A stretch of DNA of 64,000 nucleotides from IMG/VR virus record IMGVR_UViG_3300050343_000064, positions 771 through 64,770 of that record. One strand, written 5' to 3'. This document shows positions 4,376-39,670 of the stretch, one piece after another. The notes beneath the pieces were generated by a model. It was not told the DNA's origin, did not search any database, and saw only the letters and a list, made by a program, of their open reading frames with translations. The DNA is from a virus (Duplodnaviria > Caudoviricetes). Every line of letters begins with the position of its first letter. Within the stretch, counting starts at the first letter, position 1. The position numbers and the translations under genes are program-made.

Positions 4376-7300
4376 TTTTTAAATCTAATAATTTTAAATC
4401 TTTAATTCTAATATACATATCTTTTTGTATTCTAAATGCTTCTTTTTGCATTTCATTAAAGTGTTAACCATATCTGTTGGTGTTTTTTGTGCAAATTTTG
4501 TACACTATAAAATTTTTCTGTTTCATCAACAGCTCTTAATAATCTGTTCATTGTAGATGTAAAATATCTAAGATCTTTTTTAACATCAATTCTAATAATC
4601 CGTGTTCCAGTAAACAATGCAAGTAATTCATCAGACATTAAAGTTAACTGGTTTACCACCTTTAGTTAAATCTTTTGATAAAGCATCACCAATTTTTTGA
4701 CCACTAGATACAAGTACACCAGGTTTAACACCATCTAATACATATTAATGATTTAATAAATTTATCTCCAAGGTCATCTGATTGTGTGTACACAGATCCA
4801 CCACCATCTTTTTTACCATTTCTTGTAGTTACATCTATAAATCTATCAAAACCTAATGGCTCTGATATAAATGGTTCTAAGAAATTTAGATACCGGTCCG
4901 TCTTCTCCAAACATTAAATTCATTACAAATTGTTCTGTTTCTTGTGGATTTAAATTTTGTTTTGTGCTTGTGCAATTGCTGCATCTAATGGTTGATATAA
5001 ACTATCGTAAGGACTAAAGTATGAAAAATTAATTGCAGCACTTTCACCATTCTTCCAACCTTTAACAGCTAACAAGTTTGATGTTGCATCCCATGATGCA
5101 GCTGAAGATCTTTTGTATGCGTTCCACTGTGAGTCTGTAGAGTTAGTTAAGAACTGTGCAAGTTCATTAAATCCTTTTCCAACAGCATAACTAGTTAAAA
5201 ATGCACCTGTAATCTTCTTATACCCATTTGTTTATAGCTCTGTTAGGGTGTGCAGCTTCTTTTAAACCTATACAATAATATTTGCACCTGTTCTAAGTAT
5301 CTCTGCAGGAAAAGATATAAAGTTTCCAAGTGGTAGCTTTCTTAATTCTTGAATTGCTGGTGGTACTTTACTGTATGTTGGATATGTATTTCTTAATAAA
5401 AATGCTGATGCTTCTTCAATTGCATCATCAAATGTTTTTTTCTGACCTGTAACTGTATTGATTGGATCAAACTCTTTACCCATGTATCTAAACCATTTTT
5501 TAACATCATCTAAATTTTTTAGTGCTTGATACAATTGTGATCTTACCATACTCAAAACCATAACCTTTCCATAAGTTATCACCACCTGCATATAATCTTG
5601 CAACTTTATCAGTAGGTGCCATTTTCATTAATCTATCAAACAATTTATCTGTTGTATTTATTAATTGTTTTTAATATCTTGTGATTACAGCTTTTAATTC
5701 TGCAGCTACAACGTTTTCATCCCACACACCTAGTCTAACTAATTTTTCTACGTAGTTATTAAATTCTACTTCATCAATTTTATTACCACCTGCTTTAAAT
5801 ATATCTCTTGCAACAATCTGCATTGCGTCCGTAACACTAGCTCTACCACCAATGTGACCATTCATTAATGCAAAGAAAGAAGCTGATGTTACATTTCTAA
5901 CTTGTGTTTGTGGTGAGTATAATGTTTTACCAACTTGACACCAATACTTTACCTTGCATAATTTCTCGATAAATAAACATTTATCTAATTTATCTAACAC
6001 TCCACCAACACCTTGAAACATTTACATATTCAGGATCGGATGCCCATTTTTAGTAAATTTGATTTCATGTGTACCAAGTCTTGGCACTTTTAATAAGTTG
6101 TGGGGTTATAAACACCTGCGTTGATTGCTTCTTCTAAAGATTAAACAACCAACCATTTTTTAAACCAGACTCTGCAATAAAATCAGCTGCTCTTTTATTT
6201 GCCATAGATGATATCATTTCTGCTGTTGTATAACCAACAGATGCTTTTAAATTTTTTTCAGGACCTAATAAATTTTTAATTGCATTAGGTAATTCTTCAC
6301 CTGTTTTTAAAAACCATCATTTGCGCAGATTCTTTGTAAGCTTGATTTATATCAAGTTTTGGAAAGTCAGCTTTGCTCTTAGTTTTAAATCTTTATTTCT
6401 TCCTACTACATTTTTAGCAACCCAATCTACTGCCGTATTATATATCTTTTCATCTGGTGCATAGTTTGGATTAGTAAATGTTGAAAAAGATCTTAACATA
6501 TAATCTTTTATTCTATTTATTTCTATGCCCTCTAAATTTTTTGTAATAGCATCACCATCTTTACCTTTTGGTAAAGCTTTTTTAAACTCTTTCATTGTGT
6601 TTTTTATTTCAAGTTTTAAATCATCTGCTAAGTTTACTAGTTCTTTTGGAAGATCCTCTCTTTTAAGTTGTCCTCTTAAAAATTCTTCTACTTGATCAAG
6701 ATAATGTTTTTGTAATGCAGGAGAAGTAGTTGCACTATTATAATTGTTTTCAAATTTTTTAGCTAGCTCGTAAGATCTTTTTTCAATACCTTCCATAGTT
6801 CTATCTAATTTTCTTGCTCTACCTTTTATAAAAAGCATAGCTTTTTCTGATATACCTTCAATGTCTTTAGGTGCTTTACCAAAAGATCTAAAGTAAGATA
6901 AGATGTTATCTAAACGTTTAATAACTCTTTTTTCTTTTGCTGGGTTTGTTACAGAATATAATCTCCAGTCTTCAAATTTTGGTAACTGTTTTACTATTTT
7001 TCCTGAAAATGTTGATACGATCGCAGGAGCAAGTGCTTTAGTTAATACAAAGTCCTGTAGCGTTTCTAATTGTTTTAGCAGTACCTGCTACAACAGGTTT
7101 AACAGCTTCTCTGAAGATCCAAGATAACTAATAGGTCTAAATACAGCAGTGTTTATACCTTTAGCTCCTAACTTAGCAGTTGTTTTTACAAATGGTGCAA
7201 GACCAAACTTGTAACCAAGTTGTAAACCTTTTCCAATTAAAGGAAAGCCAGCACCAATAATAGCACCTTCTTGTCCATATTTAATTCTATTTCTAAATTC

Positions 7301-8071
7301 AGCTGCAGCTCTTTCTTTACCTTTTAAACCTTTTGTAGACTCTGGTTCAAAGTAGGGAGTGCTTCTTCCTTGTTCTGATGCTAAAAAATCTGTTGCTCCT
7401 ACAACAGCCATACCTTCTATAGCTCTTGCAGCGATCTTACTAACCTTTGCTTTTTTACCACCTTTGATTCCTGAAATTATTTTTTTAATCTGTCCAGCAG
7501 TTTTTGTTCTTCTTAATACTTTTTGTATAATACCACCTGGTATTGCAAACTGAGTCATTAGACCAACCAGGTCACCTCTCCATGTTTCAGGTCTATCCGG
7601 TTCTTTGTCCTTCATCATCTTGTCAAACTTTCCTAAAAAGTCTGAATCAAATGTATAATCTAAACCAGTAAATAAAGTAGTTCCTAACCCAGACATCAAG
7701 TCATAACTACCTGAGTCTACTCCTTTTCTTATTTCATCTAAAATAGATATATAATCTTTTTCTTCACCATCTTTTAATAACTGCATTGAGTCTACAGGTT
7801 TGTCATATTTTTTAGACATAGCTTGGTCTAAAAGTAATTTCATGTTTGGTGATCCAGAAAGAATAAATCTCGATAAACTTTTATCTTCTTTTTGAAAAGG
7901 ATTGAATGGTTTTAAATATTTAACAGGTGGTGTAGGTTCTGTTATATTTTCTAATGCTTTTAAGAAAGAGTTTTGTACTTCATTAAGTTCTCTTACTTGA
8001 CCAGGAGGAGTTTTCTTTTCCTCTTGTTGTTGCTGATCTTTTTTATATCTCTCTAGAGCAGTTTCGGCCAT
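4376..8071 (-). CDS. Large internal virion (ejection/core) protein, copy 1, fragmented with deletions
   Basis: Collinear fragments 7088-8071, 6347-6838, 5671-6021, 5268-5603, 4725-4910, 4456-4659; NTYPTYSKVP/LGNFISFPAEILRT; last gene of the structural operon. Confidence 0.7.
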
Positions 8072-8072
8072 T

Positions 8073-9144
8073 TTATGCCTCTTGCGGTAATACTAAATTC
8101 ACACTATATTTTTGATTAAATAAATCAACGTCTTGTTGAGTAGCAATTGTTGCAAAATCTTCTAAAGCTTCAGGACTAGCAGCAATTAATCTTACAACAT
8201 CGTCTCCTATTTCTTGTGGTAATCTAGCTCTTAGGGTACCAAAATCTATCTTAGGTTCTTGGTCCATGCTCATTGATTCTTGAGGCATTGACATTGGCGC
8301 TTGAGTCATGCCTGCTCCACCACCCATTTGATAACCTGCTCTACCACCTTCAGCATGCTTGGTTTACATGGAAATTTACCTGTTTGAAAAAATTCTTGAT
8401 AGTATTGTAAACATGTCTTCTAATAATTTTGGATCATCGTCTCCTTTTATAAATGCTATTCCATCTGCATCTTTTTTATCTAATAAATTATCTTTTATTT
8501 TTCTTAAAATTCTTTGAGTGTATTGTTCATCACCTAATAAAGATTGCTCTTACAGTATCATTTTTAGTTAACTGTTCTAATCTTAATTTTTTCTTATTTA
8601 AAAGATTAGCATCATTTTCACTAAATTCATTTGGTGTTGTAGTTTGTTTGTTTTCTAATTTTAAAATTAAATCCATAGTTGTTTCAATGTCATCAGCTAT
8701 TTGTAACTTAACACCTCTATTACCAACTGTATCTCCCATACCACTTAATGCTTCACCTTTTGCTTCGATCAATGTTTTAAATAGATCTGCATCGGTTGCA
8801 AACTTAGTTGCTCTATCTGCATCCATATCATCAAATAATTGTTTTGTTGGTGCTTTCGCAGCTTGTGCCGCTGTAGATAATAAACCTGTAAAACCTTTTC
8901 CTGTTGGTGGTCTTGACATTAAATCTAAACCTGTAGACATTAAAAATCTATTAAAGCTTTCACCTTGTGGTCTTTCATATTTTGGAAACATTGCTCTTGC
9001 TTCATCAAATTCTCCTTGAGTAGGAAAGAAATCTACAATACCTGCTTTTTTATACTGTTGTCTAGGTTGACCTAACCCTGATGTAATACCAGAGTTTGTA
9101 GAACCACCCATTCTAAACATCGGTCTTTTTAATGTTCTATTCAT
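8073..9144 (-). CDS. Putative internal virion protein (frameshifted ~8350-8530)
   Basis: Starts MNRTLKRPMFRMGG; AEGGRAGYQMGG at ~8320-8355 joins ORF 8073-8327. Confidence 0.6.
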
Positions 9145-9145
9145 A

Positions 9146-10050
9146 TTATTTTTTTAGTGCGCCGTATATCCCTGCTCCAGTAGCCGCTGCACCTAATGCA
9201 GTTTGTAAGAATCCTGGATCTGGTACTTGTGATGTTTGTGTTCCTGATCCTGCCATTCCACCCATGATACCTGTAACAAGGTTACCGTAGTTTTGTAATT
9301 GTTCTTGTGGTTGATACGCAGCCATTCTGTTTGCTTCTCTAGTTGCATCTAGGCCCGCTTGTGTTTGCGCTTGATTCAATGCGCCCAATGAACCTAACGT
9401 TGAAATATCTCCTGATTGTAATCCAGGTAATGCAGAAGCTAATCCCATTTGGTTTTGAAATTGTTGTTGAGCTGCTTGTTGTGCTTGACCAAAACCTTGT
9501 TGTAATAATCCTGCTTGTAGCTGTGCTCTGTTTCATATCAGAACCTGCTTGATATTCTGCTTGCATAACACCTTCACGTCCACCACCAAAAGCTCCTGAT
9601 GCTACTGCTTGATCTGCTTAAACCTTGTTGTTGCATTTGTGCATTTCTATCAAACTCTGCAAGTGATGCATCAATCACTTGTGATTGATAAGGTGACATA
9701 AACTGTTGATAAGCTTGTGGTCCTGTTGCAGCTTGTGCTTGATTTAAAAAAGGTTGATATGATCCTAACACCTGCTTCAGCTCTTTTTTGTGCTTCTAGT
9801 TGTAATCTGCATCTTGACCTGCAACTTGTGGTGCAAGTCCTGCTAAATTTTGTTGTCTTGTTGTAAATGCTCTTGCAGCATCTTGTCTTGCTTTAAATCC
9901 TGCATCTGTTTCACCTGTTTGTTTTGATAAACTTCCAATGCCACCTGATACAATAGGTACACCTGTAAAGGCAACGGCCTGTTCGGCTAAATCTTTTCCT
10001 ATATCTTCTACAAAAGGTGCTGGTCTTGATATTGTGGTTTCTGTCGCCAT
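9146..10050 (-). CDS. Gln/Ala-rich DNA-transfer (ejection)-like protein, fragmented
   Basis: FMSPYQSQVIDA motif, Q-rich body, C-terminal hydrophobic QTALGAAATGAGIYGAL. Confidence 0.65.
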
Positions 10051-11944
10051 TATAATACTTCCTCTAATCGTTGTGATGTTTTAAACATTTCTCTAGCGCC
10101 ATCTAATCCTTGCGATTCTTCAGATACTTCACCTCCGGATTCGAGGTTTTTCATCATGTTATACATGACTTCTGCGCCTTTGTCTATATCTCCTTCACCT
10201 GCATTTCTAACAGCGTCTGCAGTAAATACAAACTCATTCTTAGACAGTCTAGCAGGCACATCGTCTGCTCTTTCCATTCGACCGATAGGCACGAACCCAC
10301 CGTCTTCTCTGTAATCTTTTTCCATGCCGTCCATATCTAATAATGGCATAGTCTTCTTGGCTACTGGTTCTGCATCTCCACCTTCTTGATAAATTCTACC
10401 ACCGTCTGCAGCTAACTTCCTGCTATTCTTATGCTAAAAAATTTAAGGATTGTTTCTAATTGCATCAATACTATTTTTTTTATAGTACTCATCTAATCCA
10501 TTTTATCATCCTCTTCTTTACCAACACCTAATGCATCTAGAGCTGGAACACCTAAACCTAAAGTTATACCACCTAATGTTGGCATCATAGATCCACCACC
10601 TTTTGTTAACCTAATTTACCAAAAAGACCAGTTTTCCCAGTCCAGAATACCTTTTTTCATCTGCTTTTGCTATTTGTCCAAATAAATGGGTTTTCATTTA
10701 CCAATATTAAACATACCTTTTCCACCACCTGCACCATAAGATCCACCCATAGCACCTAAACCATACATCAACGCAGCTTTACCTAATGGAGACTTAGCAA
10801 CTTTCTTAACAGCTCTTGTTGCTTTCTTAACTAACTTACCTAAGAAATACATTTGTCTTCCTGATTCAAGGTCCATGATTCCTCCTTCAGGAGTATCTTC
10901 CATCATACCACCGTCCATCATTCCTGCACGTCCACCATCTGCAAGACCTGTGAAATCAAATATAGAGCCCGCGAATCTTGGAGCAAGGCCACCTAAGATT
11001 TCTTGGTAGGTGTTGTATCTTCTTCTGTGTCATCACCAACATTACAATAAGCTGGTGGGTTAGGTCCTTTACAAGGATCCATTACTTGACCATCTCCACC
11101 ATTGTCTGTAATCAGTCTACTCTATTTCTATTCATATAATCATTAAACCTTCTTGTAAACGTGTATCATCATAGGATCAAAACTAACTCTATCTAAAATT
11201 TGAATATCTTCTCTTAAATATTCTTGTGCTAATGATCTGCAATTTTCACCTGATTTTGTAATACCTGTTTTAATTTACTTAAAACACAACCTATTTTCTT
11301 ATTAAATCAAAATATTTTGTTGATGGATCTATTGTAAAGTTCCATCAAACATTCCTAATTCCTGAACCGTCGTTTCATAATCTTGGTAAGGATCTAATTT
11401 TCTTTTGGGTCTAAACCTAGTAAGATCTTCATAATTGTCATACCACCTAAATCTTGAAAGCATTAGCATCTTTAGTTCTTTGAATTCTTAGTCTTTTACA
11501 TCCTAAATAGTGTCAAAAAGACCATCTTCTTATAATCAGCTTAATTTATTTAGGATCTTTAGGAAACTTTTCTAGTCTTTTTCTTGACTGTCAAATTGGT
11601 ATTTTTGGAGGCTTATTTTCTTTTAACATTTTTATCTCTTCATTTATATTGGTGTCAAATGCTATAGATCCTCTTTGCATCTATTTTTTCTTGAGTTGCT
11701 TATTATAATTTTTCTAGGTGAACCAGCACCTTCACTTTTTGGGCCTTGAACTGGTCTGTACCTTAGGATTACCACCACCTAAAAGCTTCAGATGTCCATG
11801 CTTCCTTGACCACCTATAGCACTTCTAGATTGATTCACCTTAGCCTATAAGTTCCATACAGCATCTACCACGATAACCTGGACGTTTACCATTCGCTGGT
11901 TTGTTTACAAGTTGCTGGTATTGTTGTGCGTTTGTTATTGCCAT
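10050..11944 (-). CDS. Putative internal virion protein with xxGG motifs and a C-terminal DDVPARLSKNEFV domain; middle badly degraded
   Basis: Start MAITNAQQYQQLV at 11944; fragments 10694-10921 and 10050-10349. Confidence 0.55.
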
Positions 11945-31689: not shown

Positions 31690-31890
31690 TTATACTTGTC
31701 CTCCTTTAAAATATTTCATTCTAGTCATATCCATCATTCCACCACCCATAGCTTTTTTTCTTTTCTTCTTGCCACCTGGTGTAACTTTACCTGAACATAC
31801 GGCTGAACCATACATGTTAGCATATGCTGAAGGATATACTTTGAATTTTCTTTTAGCGGCTGCTTTGCCTTTTGCACATAGTTTAGCCAT
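31690..31890 (-). CDS. Basic protein (DUF5872-like, N-terminal half)
   Basis: AKRKFKVYPSAYAN; carries AMGGG and FKGG. Confidence 0.65.
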   Translation of the reverse strand: MAKLCAKGKAAAKRKFKVYPSAYANMYGSAVCSGKVTPGGKKKRKKAMGGGMMDMTRMKYFKGGQV

Positions 31891-32363
31891 TATATAATTT
31901 TCTTTTTAGATTTAGTTTTTGGAATTACACCTTTAGCCATTAAAATATCTTTTTGAGTAATTTTACCATCACCAGAATGATCAGGAAATTTAGAACCACT
32001 TTTAAGGCCAACTCTTCCACCTTTGTTAAAGTTTTTAGGTGCATTAAATATTTTTGTTGTCTTTTTCTCTTTTTTTTCAGCAGCTTTTTCTTTTATTCTA
32101 GCGTCTGCTTTCTTTTTTAATTCAGTATTAGAAAGAGTTTTTGTTTTACTACCTTTAAAAGTAATAGGCATATTATTTTTTAATTCAAAAATTGATTGAC
32201 TTAATTTTGCACCAGAACCTTTTGCTTTTTGTACGGCTTTAGTTGTTTCACTTATTTTTTTTTCTAATTTTGTTGTATTAACAGTTGGATTAACCTTACT
32301 TATAGTTGGTGAGGTTTTTTTACCTGCTTTCCATATTTTGTATCCGTAGCTTAAAAGTCCCAT
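31890..32363 (-). CDS. Lys-rich protein with xxGG motif and an EF-hand-like loop
   Basis: FNKGGRVGLKSG followed by FPDHSGDGKITQKDIL. Confidence 0.65.
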   Translation of the reverse strand: MGLLSYGYKIWKAGKKTSPTISKVNPTVNTTKLEKKISETTKAVQKAKGSGAKLSQSIFELKNNMPITFKGSKTKTLSNTELKKKADARIKEKAAEKKEKKTTKIFNAPKNFNKGGRVGLKSGSKFPDHSGDGKITQKDILMAKGVIPKTKSKKKII

Positions 32364-35514: not shown

Positions 35515-37171
35515 TCATTGCACCTTTTCTTCTCTTCTACCTTCATCATAAGTTTTCATTAAACCTAATTTTTGAAAAGGTATTGCAAGATAAGAGTTTC
35601 TCACTCCCTGCATAAAAGAATCTCCTTCACTAGCCATCTTATCAGCTATCAATGCTCCTTCGAAAAGTGCTTCTGGTATGACTCCTAACTTCACTATATT
35701 ACTTGCCCCCATGGCCTTTATACCTTTTGTTAATTTAGAAAAATTACTAGATTCTGCTTTAGTAAAATCTACTCCACCTTTTTTAACTCTTTCTAATCCA
35801 TTTTTAAAACAAACATCAACATTAACAGGTCCATCTTTTAAACCGATTCTACCGCCTTGATTTTTAAAACCTCTACCACAGTCACCACCACCTAAACTAG
35901 CTATTAAAGATTTAATTTCTTTTACATCAGCTTGAACCTGTGTTTTTGTTTTTGAAGCATTTTCCATAGCCGTGGTTTTTAAATTTTTTACTATAGCTTT
36001 ATCTTGTTTGTTTATGTCTGCTAACTTTGTATCTTTTCCTAACAGTTCTGTGGGATCAAGTTCTTGAGAAGGGCTACTAAAATTAATTGTAAATTCTTTT
36101 CCAGTGTAAGGATCTATTCCTGTAAATTTTTTATAACCTTTTGTAGCAGCTGCTAAATCATTTCCTCTTTGATTTAATATATCCATTTCTTTTAAATAAC
36201 CTTTTGGTTTATTTTTATACAAATTTGCTAATTTTTTATTTAACTGTCTCATTTCAGTATCAACTTCTTTTAAAACTTCTTGATTTATTTCTTGTGCCGC
36301 ATAACCAATATTACTTGTTTTAACATCTTGTGTTAATTTATCACCTAAATGACTTTTTTGTAATCTAACAACGTCATCATCCGCAGCGTCTGCAAAAAAT
36401 TTTCCACTCGTCATTGGTGCAGAAAGAACTCTTTCAAAATACCTATCACTAAATTTTTTAATAGCTTTCTTCTCAGCATCCCTAATTGCTTTAGTATATT
36501 CACCAGGATCTTGTATTGGAATGTATTTTCTTTGACCTAGTTTACTTATATATCTATCAAAAGTTTTAAAATCAATATTATATCTATTTGCAATATTTCC
36601 AATCATTCCTCTTTTAGGGTTTTTTATTTTTCTATAATCATTTAATGCTTTTTCCATATTTGGATTTTCTATTCCATAAATATTTAGATCTTTTGCGTAC
36701 TCTCTAATTTCTTTTGCTAAAGTTTTAGTAAACACATTATCTGTTCCTTTTTTAACAGTAGAACCGTCTATGTTTTTTGTACCTACTTTTTTATAAAATT
36801 TCTTTTGATACTTTTTTACAATGTTATCAATATTACCATATCCTTTTTTTTCTAAATTGGAAACTTCTTCAAAAGCTTTTTCTAATTGATTTATAAATTT
36901 TTTATCATTTAATAAATTACCTGCACCTCTTTCTTTTTGAAGTTCAATTATGCTTTTACCTTTTGGAATATTTTTCATAGCTTCATTAAGATCAGTTCTT
37001 GCTTCTTTAATAGTTGATCGAGAAGTTATACCCGGGCCGTGATCCGTCGTCACTGGGTTGTACCAACATACCACCATCATTGAACATGGGTCGTGATTCA
37101 AGGACCGTGGCGCTTGGGCCATCGTCATCGTAGATTGCACTTAGATCTTGTATTCTTTTAAAGAGATCCAT
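35515..37171 (-). CDS. Variable Lys-rich putative head-cargo protein (indels near start, truncated end)
   Basis: Long ORF; an alternate frame near the start gives MFNDGGMLVQPSDDGSRPGY; KNQGGRIGLKDG near the end. Confidence 0.65.
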
Positions 37172-39670
37172 TACTCACCTAACATTCTAGCGATACCACC
37201 TGATGCGTAATCATCATACTCATAATAATCACCTTGTTTTTTTGTAGCGTAGTCAGATATTTCTCCTATATCCCCTTCATTAATTTTTCTAACTCTGTCT
37301 TTTCTTTTTTTGGAAGCTACAAATTCTTTCATAGTAGGTCCTTTACCTGTCGCGTATTCTTTTAGTTTAGACACATCAGAATCTAAATCTTTAATTTTGT
37401 CTCCAATCATTGGTTCTGGATCAATGCTATAATCATCAGGGCCATTGGATCTTGCAGCAAGACCTTGTTCAAATGTTTCAAACTCGTCTGCAGGTTTTAT
37501 ACCTTTTGTAGCTTCATCTGCTTGACCTCTAGTATAAGATAAAACTGGTTCATCGAGCATAACATCCGGACTACTATAATCAACTCTAATAGAATCAGTA
37601 TCTAGATCTCTATAAACTGTTACTTCATTATCCGCATCAATTTTTTTAGTATGTACAACTTGACGTTCTGTTACTGCAAATTTTTTAGTAACATCATCTC
37701 CTTCAATAATTACTTTATTAACTAACTGATCAAACCATTCTGGTTTACCAGGAACATCTATCTGTTTTAATTACTCGGAACATTCTTAACTCCTTTAAGA
37801 GTTTTTAAAGGTTTAACAATCTTACCTATAATTGGTAGTGAAGCAAGTCCACCAAGAAATTTTAAAAATGTTCTTCTATTCATGCCAGGTCCGTCTTTAT
37901 AACCAATACGACCACCTGTTGCATTTAATTCTCTTGCTGTCTTACCACCTGTTTCCATATCTTTTAATATATTTTCTAACTGCATAATTCCTTCATCAGT
38001 TAATTTTGGTGTATCCATTTTACCCGCTGCATTCTCTGCCATCTTAGAAATTGTTCCAGCCATTTCTTCAGCCATGTTTCTATCTACACCTTTTTTAATC
38101 ATATCTTCGATCATTTCATTTTTATATTTTATAGTATTATCATCTGCACGTTTTATATTTTTAGCTGAACCTAACATCTCTTCAATAGTTTTTTGTCTAT
38201 CAGCCATCATTTGTTTTTGCATATTTTTAATTAAGTCTGGTGCGGCAATACCTTTTTCAATATCAAACTTTCTATAAATGTTTGGATCTTCTAACATTTG
38301 ATTTAATCTTTTTGGATTAACTATTCTTAAAATATCAGAAGGGTTTTTGACTGAATCACTTTTCTTACCAAAATAATTTAACATTTCTCTTAAAGTAGAT
38401 AATCCTTTTTGAACTGTAGGTCTACTACCCATGAATAAACCAATACGTCCACCGTCTGAATTTTCTTTACGACCTTTTGTTTTAAAATTAGAAAGCTCTA
38501 AAGTTTGTTCTAATTTTTTATATCCTTCAGGGTCTGTCTCTTTCATGTATCTTGTAAACTCTTCTGAAATTTCTGGGTCAGACATGTTAATACCTTTACC
38601 TTCTTTCATAGACTTTAATGTTTTTTCTGGTTTAGATATTTTTTGGAACTCACCTCTTTGTTTACTTAAAGCAGTATAAGCTTTGTCATAAAGATCCATT
38701 TGTTGAGCTTGAGTTAAATCATCATACTCCATCTGAAACATTTTTTCTGCTAAATCATCTGCTACTAGTTGTGCATCATATTTAATATCTCCTGTATAAC
38801 CCGGTGATGCATTATCAATTGCATCTGCCATAGGATCATTTGGTCCCCCTAGTCTTTTAGATCCTCCAATTGATTTATATTCTGCAAACATTTCAGCTTC
38901 ATAGTCCTTTAATGTTTTTTCTCTTTTTAAAAGTTCTTCTATAGTTTCATCACCTGCAACATTAAAACCCATACTGTCTTCAGCATCATCTAATATTTCT
39001 TTGTAATAATCATAGTCAGGTGTTTTACCATCTTCCATAAACACACCTTCTTTTTTGTTAATTCTATTATCTGCTGTTTTAAACATATCACGCTCTAGCG
39101 TTTTTAGAGGGATAGGTGCTTTGTCAGCAGTTGTAATTGATTTCTTACCAAATTTATTTCTTACTAAATCTATTAAACTTTCTACTCCTTTTTTTCCTGC
39201 ACCAAATTTGTAACCAATACGTCCGCCATTAGCAAAGTTTTCTGGAATATATTTTTTAGAAAAAGTTTTAAAATCCATCTTACCACCTTTATTTAAATAA
39301 TCTTTATAAAAAGAAATCATCGCTCATCGATCTTATCATCGATAGTTATAACTCCCTCTCCATCTTTGTAACCAATACGGCCTCCACCCATTGCTCTTTC
39401 TTCAGGCTCATTTAATTTCTTTTTCATAGACGCAATACCTTCTTCATTTTGTTTCATCAGTCTTCGTCTAATATCATCTTCTGTCTCTGGAATATTTTTA
39501 CCACCCATAATAGGTTTATTAGGATTAATAGCACTACGATCAAACATACTGACAACTTTTCTTTCATCAATAGATTGTTTGGCTGCTTTCTGTCTTAACA
39601 GAATCATTTCCATATTGTTAGGCATTCTGCCTTTACTTGCTTTAAATGCTTCTATTAAAAATTTTAACAT
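37171..39670 (-). CDS. Modular ~830-aa putative cargo protein/polyprotein with four GGRIG motifs (three ORF fragments)
   Basis: 39317-39670, 37767-39320 and 37171-37560 join through indels; bridging PGKPEWFDQLVNKVI reads at ~37700-37750. Confidence 0.65.

Follow-up and report, generated by a model that had tools for sequence, protein, structure and literature searches.

A possible twin-arginine targeting segment in a modular head-region protein of a pelagiphage relative

The window analysed here is a stretch of 64,000 nucleotides (nt) that makes up nearly the whole of a 64,770-bp IMG/VR virus record (IMGVR_UViG_3300050343_000064; CheckV completeness 100). We focused on one gene of its minus strand. 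Copies of a Gly-Gly-Arg linker motif recur along the encoded protein. After the last of four such copies comes a segment resembling the signals of the twin-arginine translocation (Tat) pathway, and then a C-terminal domain. All of the peptides quoted in a preliminary description of this DNA lie on the minus strand where they had been placed. That description treated the region as a single gene. In relatives this is correct, since they carry one open reading frame (ORF). However, the window itself holds three ORFs in three frames (genetic code table 11), and the two breaks had been overlooked. The features are listed below. P0005 denotes an intact relative of 831 amino acids (aa), and pLDDT (predicted local distance difference test) values refer to its AlphaFold2 (AF2) model.

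39670–37171, minus strand: the gene under study, between the large terminase gene and a second large gene
39317–39670, minus strand: N-terminal piece, 117 aa, first frame; equivalent to residues 1–116 of P0005
39385–39359, minus strand: linker copy 1, GGRIGYKDG; pLDDT below 50 at P0005 residues 94–106
39321–39322, minus strand: first frame break, two extra bases (CG), giving ..IDER* in place of ..IDEMISFY..
37767–39320, minus strand: central piece, 517 aa, second frame; helical modules 2–4 and the Tat-like segment
39227–39201, minus strand: linker copy 2, GGRIGYKFG
38453–38427, minus strand: linker copy 3, GGRIGLFMG; a homology breakpoint among relatives
37916–37890, minus strand: linker copy 4, GGRIGYKDG, immediately before the twin-arginine motif and at the main homology breakpoint
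37883–37860, minus strand: MNRRTFLK, with the twin-arginine consensus [T/S/N]-R-R-x-F-[L/M]-K (N-R-R-T-F-L-K at 37880–37860)
37859–37824, minus strand: FLGGLASLPIIG, an uncharged Gly/Ala-rich stretch of 12 residues, h-region-like; pLDDT below 50 at P0005 residues 606–626
37823–37785, minus strand: KIVKPLKTLKGVK, Lys-rich and c-region-like, with no AxA site
37757–37776, minus strand: second frame break, two single extra bases (37776; 37757/8) acting together
37171–37770, minus strand: C-terminal piece, third frame, an open frame with its first ATG at 37560; alpha/beta domain, acidic tail and terminal motif
37200–37174, minus strand: terminal form of the motif, GGIARMLGE, next to the stop codon at 37173–37171

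The unit begins with 30 residues that match a Tat signal in its n-, h- and c-regions, and conservation is strongest at the positions by which such a signal is defined. Residues were counted in an alignment of 150 diverse relatives, whose overall identity falls to about 26%. The twin-arginine residues are kept across this set. Position -1 is T in 59, S in 36, N in 30 and G in 15 relatives, and Met occupies position -2 in 125. The first Arg is R in 142 and K in seven, while the second is R in 149; only the first Arg of the pair is ever Lys. The x position is free. It is followed by an invariant F (150/150), by L (128) or M (22) and by K (141). The preliminary description had made conservation of RRxFLK in homologues decisive for its proposal. 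This conservation is borne out, since RRxF[LM]K is kept in all 120 close matches listed, R598 in 149 of the 150 aligned relatives and F600 in all of them. RRxF[LM]K occurs once in the six frames of the window, whereas shuffled sequence gives 0.12 on average.

The uncharged run is exactly 12 residues long in 150/150 relatives (mean Kyte-Doolittle hydropathy 1.9), and K comes next in 145. The hydrophobic region, which had been described as short, is of fixed length. Tat h-regions have around 12–20 uncharged, weakly hydrophobic residues; 12 is at the low end. A 19-residue hydropathy of 1.6 is reached in only 33/150 relatives, and the maximum for P0005, 1.36, falls short of a transmembrane-like level. 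The Pfam model TAT_signal (PF10518) matches the window with 15.1 bits (E 0.022; cut-off 22.7 bits). No other Pfam family recurs; 34 of the 93 members scanned match this one at E≤0.1, and its label is carried by one family cluster and by protein P0087. RRxFLK had been expected always to follow the linker motif. This holds for most proteins but not for all. A GG..R motif lies at most 30 residues upstream of the segment in 228 of 241 proteins, at a distance of 11–15 residues in 209, and the distant relative L008 reads ..GMDRRQFLQ.. with no adjacent linker motif. In the relatives L035 and L036, about 300 residues ahead of the main unit, ..GGRVGFKGG.. is followed after 12 aa by ..MERRKFLKTMVGNTEKNKK.., where RRxFLK stands without a hydrophobic run.

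The six frames of the window contain six GGR[IV]G motifs; 200 mononucleotide shuffles gave a mean of 0.02 and a maximum of one. Hence, the linker motifs are not due to chance. Their consensus is hydrophobic-A-x-G-G-R-[I/A/V]-G-[F/L/Y]-x-x-G. Across 325 unique instances, A is found at -2 in 288, G-G in 325 and R in 323. The next residue is I (130), A (121) or V (59), followed by G (310), by F (198), L (65) or Y (56), and by G at +8 (315). The logo of these instances also shows an acidic, D-P-E-D-like lead-in. At protein ends the motif takes the form ..A-x-G-G-[I/L]-A-x-[M/L]-L-G-E, and 171 of 267 family proteins have ..GG[ILVM][APMVT][RKTH].. in their last 11 residues. The terminal GGIARMLGE noted previously is indeed present before the stop; comparison with P0178 and L088 identifies it as the linker motif in end position. 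At this place P0178, where another unit comes next, reads ..DDYASGG-RIGFSKG.., and L088, a relative in a SAR86 bin, reads ..GGGLAPLLGE-PTY-ADGGRIGF... The terminal and internal forms are therefore one element. Further copies of the motif are found elsewhere in the window (35856, 32021, 10936 and 8348) and twice in gp82 of phage HTVC027P.

AF2 was run on P0005 with a 106-row alignment and gave a mean pLDDT of 73.3. The model consists of helical modules, with pLDDT below 50 at residues 94–106, 141–158, 394–413, 583–592 and 606–626. The first four of these segments coincide with the four linker motifs (residues 95, 147, 405 and 584), and the fifth with the hydrophobic run and what comes after it. 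Low-confidence segments at 175–217, 228–240 and 259–273 match no motif. We also compared P0005 with the 267 family proteins by BLAST, counting starts of high-scoring segment pairs where the subject extends upstream. Such starts cluster at 400–409 (42) and 580–589 (70), with a third cluster of 50 at 270–289. The preliminary description had proposed a modular protein with the motif at module borders, and the low-confidence segments and breakpoints at motifs agree with this. Unit order varies among relatives and some proteins contain duplicated units. In L007, the twin-arginine unit is mid-protein, ahead of a module akin to HTVC027P gp41; the order of units is free. Judged from sequence and model, the protein seems to be built as beads on a string, with relatives swapping modules at the linker motifs.

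Both frame breaks are -1 shifts. We compared them with contigs of four public runs from four studies. All four lack the 2 nt at 39321 and none has the version of the window there. The single nt at 37776 is absent from contigs of three of the four runs, and that at 37757 (one run) or 37758 (three runs) from all four. The IMG/VR relative L003, with 95% aa identity over the 517-aa piece, has a single uninterrupted ORF of 831 aa and reads ..IDEMISFY.. and ..VKNIPVIKTDNVPGKPEWF.. through the two break sites. Relative L006 has a single ORF of 646 aa. Because L003 and L006 are continuous, and other assemblies are without the extra bases, the breaks are not biology of the gene. Programmed frameshifting was rejected as an explanation for the two -1 breaks, since other assemblies and relatives are in frame. 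Nor is an alternative genetic code needed, since the reading frame shifts at the breaks and no in-frame stop is involved. After 37543, other assemblies have one extra in-frame codon, CTT (three runs) or CTC (one), giving ..EPVSLSYTRG.. as in L006.

Other genes are broken in this record, namely those for the large terminase (four pieces), the portal (two) and the major head protein (two), as well as the second large gene. Many small indels seem spread over the whole record. At least half of the sampled words are present in 17 runs, and 421 viral contig stretches encode a relative of the gene. The frame breaks are private to this record, whether as errors or as lesions; the record is error-rich or defective, and the gene is sound. 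It is scarcely credible that we are dealing with a dead gene or an artefact without biological meaning in this window. Three private indels within 2.5 kb would suit such an account, as would the likewise broken terminase, portal and head protein genes. However, the intact gene is widespread in the runs and contig stretches just mentioned and in 967 clusters, its motifs are strongly conserved, and the lesions are a property of the record and not of the gene. For the gene family, the dead-gene account is largely refuted.

In P0005 an alpha/beta domain spans residues 630–810, most of it with pLDDT above 90. A separate model of this C-terminal domain has a pLDDT of 81 and a predicted template modelling score (pTM) of 0.73. 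The twin-arginine segment is left unpacked against it (pLDDT around 50 or below). A search with the C-terminal 262 residues returned 2383 relatives at E≤1e-3 among 5177 candidates from a set of 5.8 billion sequences; the 967 clusters of the unit are those of a 50%-identity library. PHROG and Pfam scans found no family covering the protein. No MuF, enzymatic or toxin domain was detected with Pfam in the window pieces, P0001–P0004 and 93 relatives. A PDB profile search gave a single match, to a short stretch of a hydrogenase-related Fe-S protein (E 0.16). With either the whole model or the domain as query, Foldseek returned nothing from the PDB at E≤0.001, and weak fold-search rows for NAP1, CapZ and Mam33 were discarded as chance. 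Only uncharacterised proteins of uncultured viruses were found when the whole model was searched against BFVD. The ESM Atlas yielded unnamed viral clusters only, one with a 20% TAT_signal label. The C-terminal domain is thus predicted to have a fold without known relatives. In a tblastn search of 50,697 phage records, the C-terminal unit was found in HTVC027P only (34% identity over 34% of the query). The linker motif is present in phage 023Pt_psg01, and the twin-arginine unit is absent from its two proteins.

In a scan of species genomes, the gene was found in a SAR86 bin and a fragment of it in a Pelagibacteraceae single-cell assembly. The latter encodes tatC (240.9 bits), followed by two TatA/B-like ORFs. 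TatC scored above the cut-off in 31 of 41 genomes sampled from that family, the ten misses being assemblies of unknown completeness. Four SAR11-family genomes have 2–4 Tat-signal matches above the cut-off each, including Rieske-like and binding-protein precursors such as ..NRRTFLKNLGYGIGGIAF... Natural RRxF[LF][KT] signals occur in these genomes. Hence, the Tat pathway and its consensus are present in the likely host lineage. L088, the SAR86-bin relative, is 46% identical to the unit, reads ..KRRGFLKLAAGLATLPFIGK.. and lies on a contig of 3279 bp; its presence there reflects either a phage that infects another host or faulty binning. Complex prediction with a SAR11-family TatC and P0005 residues 586–632 gave a score of 0.00 and no verdict, which speaks neither for nor against binding.

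Our tentative interpretation is that the segment serves this modular phage protein as a functional Tat-type targeting peptide. We rank this first because the fixed and free positions, and the replacement of the first R by K, follow the Tat rule. Natural KR signals exist, and K for the first Arg conforms to that rule. Briefly, one gene (831 aa in intact relatives) encodes a mosaic head-module protein. Its conserved unit, kept in 150/150 aligned relatives, comprises the linker motif, 11–15 residues, the Tat-type peptide and a compact alpha/beta domain. In an infected SAR11-type cell, the host TatBC receptor would recognise the peptide, and the folded C-terminal domain would be brought to or across the inner membrane. 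The unit might be freed beforehand by cleavage at the A-x-G-G/R linker. Alternatively, the peptide might serve as an uncleaved internal signal-anchor, so that the upstream modules would remain cytoplasmic. Tat contact, cleavage and virion association are all events that we infer. The full proposal, a polyprotein with units released at A-x-G-G/R linkers, of which the conserved one uses host Tat to place its folded domain in the SAR11 periplasm or inner membrane, is unlikely. A domain so placed might act as an anchor for assembly or lysis, or form part of the path of entry in the next infection. The preliminary description spoke of phage cargo and of jamming Tat; both ideas were pure conjecture.

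Several observations weigh against Tat targeting. The segment is internal at 83/83 sites in IMG/VR loci, with at least 30 in-frame residues upstream; at the 56 sites with a stop upstream, the distance is at least 144 aa, with a median of 404. Across 241 proteins the RR position ranges from 48 to more than 640, bar one probably cut protein (P0164), and in P0005 it is residue 597 of 831. A strict AxA signal-peptidase site between +8 and +30 is present in only 8/150 relatives; the region is Lys-rich instead. The curated TAT_signal cut-off was unreached by the best of 93 members (19.1 against 22.7 bits), and TIGR01409 (cut-off 16.7 bits) matched only four of the 93 at E≤0.1. Neither the HTVC023P nor the 023Pt_psg01 record has a tblastn match to the unit at E≤1e-3. 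A simple N-in/C-out export model also sits awkwardly with 19 of 267 proteins, where further modules come after the unit or two copies stand in tandem (P0087, P0185, P0178). Scanning many windows will yield some six-residue consensus matches by chance. The fixed length of 12 residues fits a specific protein contact equally well as a signal, and genes between terminase and portal normally make head parts that assemble in the cytoplasm. Furthermore, no ribosome-binding site was seen ahead of the segment Met by pairing with the anti-Shine-Dalgarno (anti-SD) sequence. PHROG and Pfam scans found no protease family in the gene pieces and 10 post-portal ORFs, nor in 10 HTVC027P structural-region proteins and 60 window ORFs; in the last two lists, the best 25 of 27 Pfam and the best 25 of 47 PHROG families were given. 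The missing protease is weak negative evidence, as most scanned proteins match nothing.

Some of these points would be expected under the main rival explanation, which is on the unlikely side though of real weight: the protein would be a virion component (minor head, internal or ejected), and the segment a helix used for docking or membrane contact independently of Tat. The basic-flanked helix would bind the portal, the core or its own oligomeric domain, or would sit in or on the membrane during genome delivery. The resemblance to Tat would then have arisen by chance or convergence, and the GGRxG motifs would act as peptides for docking or as flexible hinges. Placement of the gene between terminase and portal favours such a role, together with the strict 12-residue length (150/150), the motif that is always internal, and the existence of tandem and non-terminal units. 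The linker motif is shared with other structural-region proteins, both in the window (35856, 32021, 10936, 8348) and in HTVC027P (gp82, twice), and has eleven conserved positions, more than is usual for a cleavage site. Tat hidden Markov model scores under the cut-off also suit a docking helix. However, conservation falls precisely on the positions of the Tat consensus, with x free. P0005 has no transmembrane-like window of 19 residues (maximum 1.36), and in the AF2 model the segment is not packed onto the domain (pLDDT around 50 or below). PHROGs, Pfam, PDB profile and Foldseek searches gave no match to known internal or ejection proteins, and virion proteomics of the protein was not found in the literature passages available.

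Two further explanations keep the Tat likeness and change its use. The peptide could be a decoy that occupies host TatBC and blocks or redirects Tat export, the phage domain not being exported. The consensus match and the host Tat evidence apply here as they do to a targeting peptide, and the missing AxA site and large attached modules could make a poor passenger. We nevertheless consider a decoy improbable. No benefit is evident, with only 2–4 Tat signals above the cut-off in each SAR11-family genome; a conserved folded domain with its own terminal motif would be superfluous; and the gene lies within a late morphogenesis module. More improbable still is translation from an internal start at the conserved Met, a possibility raised in the preliminary description; the product would be a protein of its own, about 235 aa long and with the Tat signal at its N-terminus. 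Met is found two residues before RR in 125/150 relatives, and M-x-R-R-x-F-L-K is a typical beginning of Tat precursors, seen in the host examples. We predicted anti-SD pairing over 17 nt upstream in 60 distinct loci. The segment Met scored -3.1 kcal/mol (n=60), near other in-frame Met codons (-2.4, n=1309) and far from the starts of two downstream genes (-6.9, n=30). Internal initiation is therefore unsupported. In addition, the Lys codon before the Met is almost always AAA, not AAG, and subclades without the Met (..DPSKRKFMK.., ..KARRAFLK..) retain the rest.

The large terminase gene is the sole DNA-level match of the window to cultured phages. It is 69–72% identical to four records, those of Pelagibacter phages HTVC027P and HTVC023P, phage 023Pt_psg01 and phage DSL-LC04. 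The source phage is a relative of the HTVC023P-type pelagiphages. Genes around the one under study are as follows.

41076–39670, minus strand: large terminase, four ORF pieces
37171–35515, minus strand: second large gene, broken here and 877 aa in L003; similar protein type, with GGRIGLKDG at 35856
35385–32948, minus strand: portal, two pieces; small ORFs come after
31890–32363, minus strand: Lys-rich ORF of 157 aa, just after the portal; linker motif at 32021, ..FNKGGRVGLKSGS..
30420–30007, minus strand: phage-encoded GroES
29987–29037, minus strand: scaffold-like protein
27921–27020, minus strand: major head protein, two pieces
6347–11029, minus strand: run of broken ORFs with extra motif copies, ..LADGGRAGMMDGG.. 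at 10936, ..AADGGRIYQEGG.. near 10400 and ..HAEGGRAGYQMGG.. at 8348

In HTVC027P and 023Pt_psg01, too, large terminase and portal are separated by two large hypothetical proteins. The gene under study belongs to the head-morphogenesis module. A PHROG scan placed the 157-aa ORF in no family. We considered whether the linker motif imitates the mobile loop of a GroES and so binds GroEL. The loop of the phage GroES reads ..TKGGLVLAE.., and its likeness to the linker motif is limited to GG and hydrophobic residues. The run of broken ORFs at 6347–11029 probably represents one or more large structural proteins, like HTVC027P gp82–gp85; it also holds a stretch, ..VPARLSKNEFVFTADAVRNAGEGD.., of no assigned match. 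Window ORFs include the Pfam families Pam3 gp32/gp33/gp34-like, SU10 adaptor, GP88 and LAGLIDADG endonuclease. The tail seems akin to cyanophage and SU10-type components of solved structure.

HTVC023P-type phages are given as the most abundant known marine viral group in the passages available of one preprint (bioRxiv 10.1101/2019.12.14.876532). Most of their structural genes are without known function. In the parts available, the HTVC023P papers make no mention of a Tat-like segment or linker motif, supplementary gene tables aside, and the literature passages available contain no proteomic or functional statement on the protein. A search for a twin-arginine signal in a phage ejection protein returned no publication, and none of the matches listed for GGRIG concerned phages. 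We found nothing in print on a Tat-like signal in this protein, which hints at an unstudied link between phage and export. A near-invariant Tat consensus in a mosaic head-module protein bears on how phages deal with the SAR11 envelope, and the linker motif offers a handle on a set of proteins sharing a partner or protease. Should Tat be involved, the segment would be an unusual instance of a Tat signal that is internal or becomes unmasked, and the phage would be drawing on the Tat pathway. Tat would then serve the morphogenesis module of a virus group that ranks among the most abundant in the ocean.

No sequence or fold similarity was detected to podovirus internal or ejection proteins (T7 gp14–16; P22 gp7, gp16 and gp20). 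Iyer et al. reportedly described, in 2017, polyvalent or MuF-type phage proteins that are packaged in heads. These are similar in being large mosaic proteins of many units encoded beside portal and terminase, but the protein studied here has no detected MuF, enzymatic or toxin domain. Virion polyproteins are cut at Gly-Gly-X in adenovirus, at its protease sites, and in African swine fever virus (pp220 and pp62), and T4 has head proteins with cleaved targeting peptides. The Gly-Gly-X polyproteins share with the phage protein autonomous units split by a recurrent motif containing A-x-G-G. In contrast, no protease was detected in the proteins scanned here, and the phage motif has around 11 conserved positions, five of them after Gly-Gly.

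The hypothetical proteins gp41 and gp42 of HTVC027P (MN698241.1) have the same position, after the large terminase. Here, gp41 contains ..ADGGRIGYSIG.. and ends ..ASGGLPHILGV, while gp42 contains ..VGGRVGYADGPDDPSKRKFIKLGAGLMSLPIIGK.. followed by the homologous domain. The units are split differently over the two genes, and the twin-arginine motif is a KR variant with no Met in the match of 34% identity over 34% of the query. Twin-arginine signals can work away from the extreme N-terminus, as in bipartite chloroplast presequences and in the polytopic Rieske proteins of actinobacteria. In those cases transmembrane helices or a cleaved transit peptide come first, whereas soluble helical modules precede the phage segment. 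Compared with bacterial Tat signals, such as those of SAR11-family Rieske-like and periplasmic binding proteins, the phage segment never stands at the N-terminus (it lies between 48 and more than 640 residues into the protein) and has no AxA. Its run is fixed at 12 residues, whereas the runs of the host signals inspected are longer, and it scores below the Pfam and TIGRFAM cut-offs. Conversely, the two are alike in [S/T]-R-R-x-F-L-K, in a Gly/Ala-rich and weakly hydrophobic run with basic residues after it, in the folded domain behind, and in KR as the only variant of RR.

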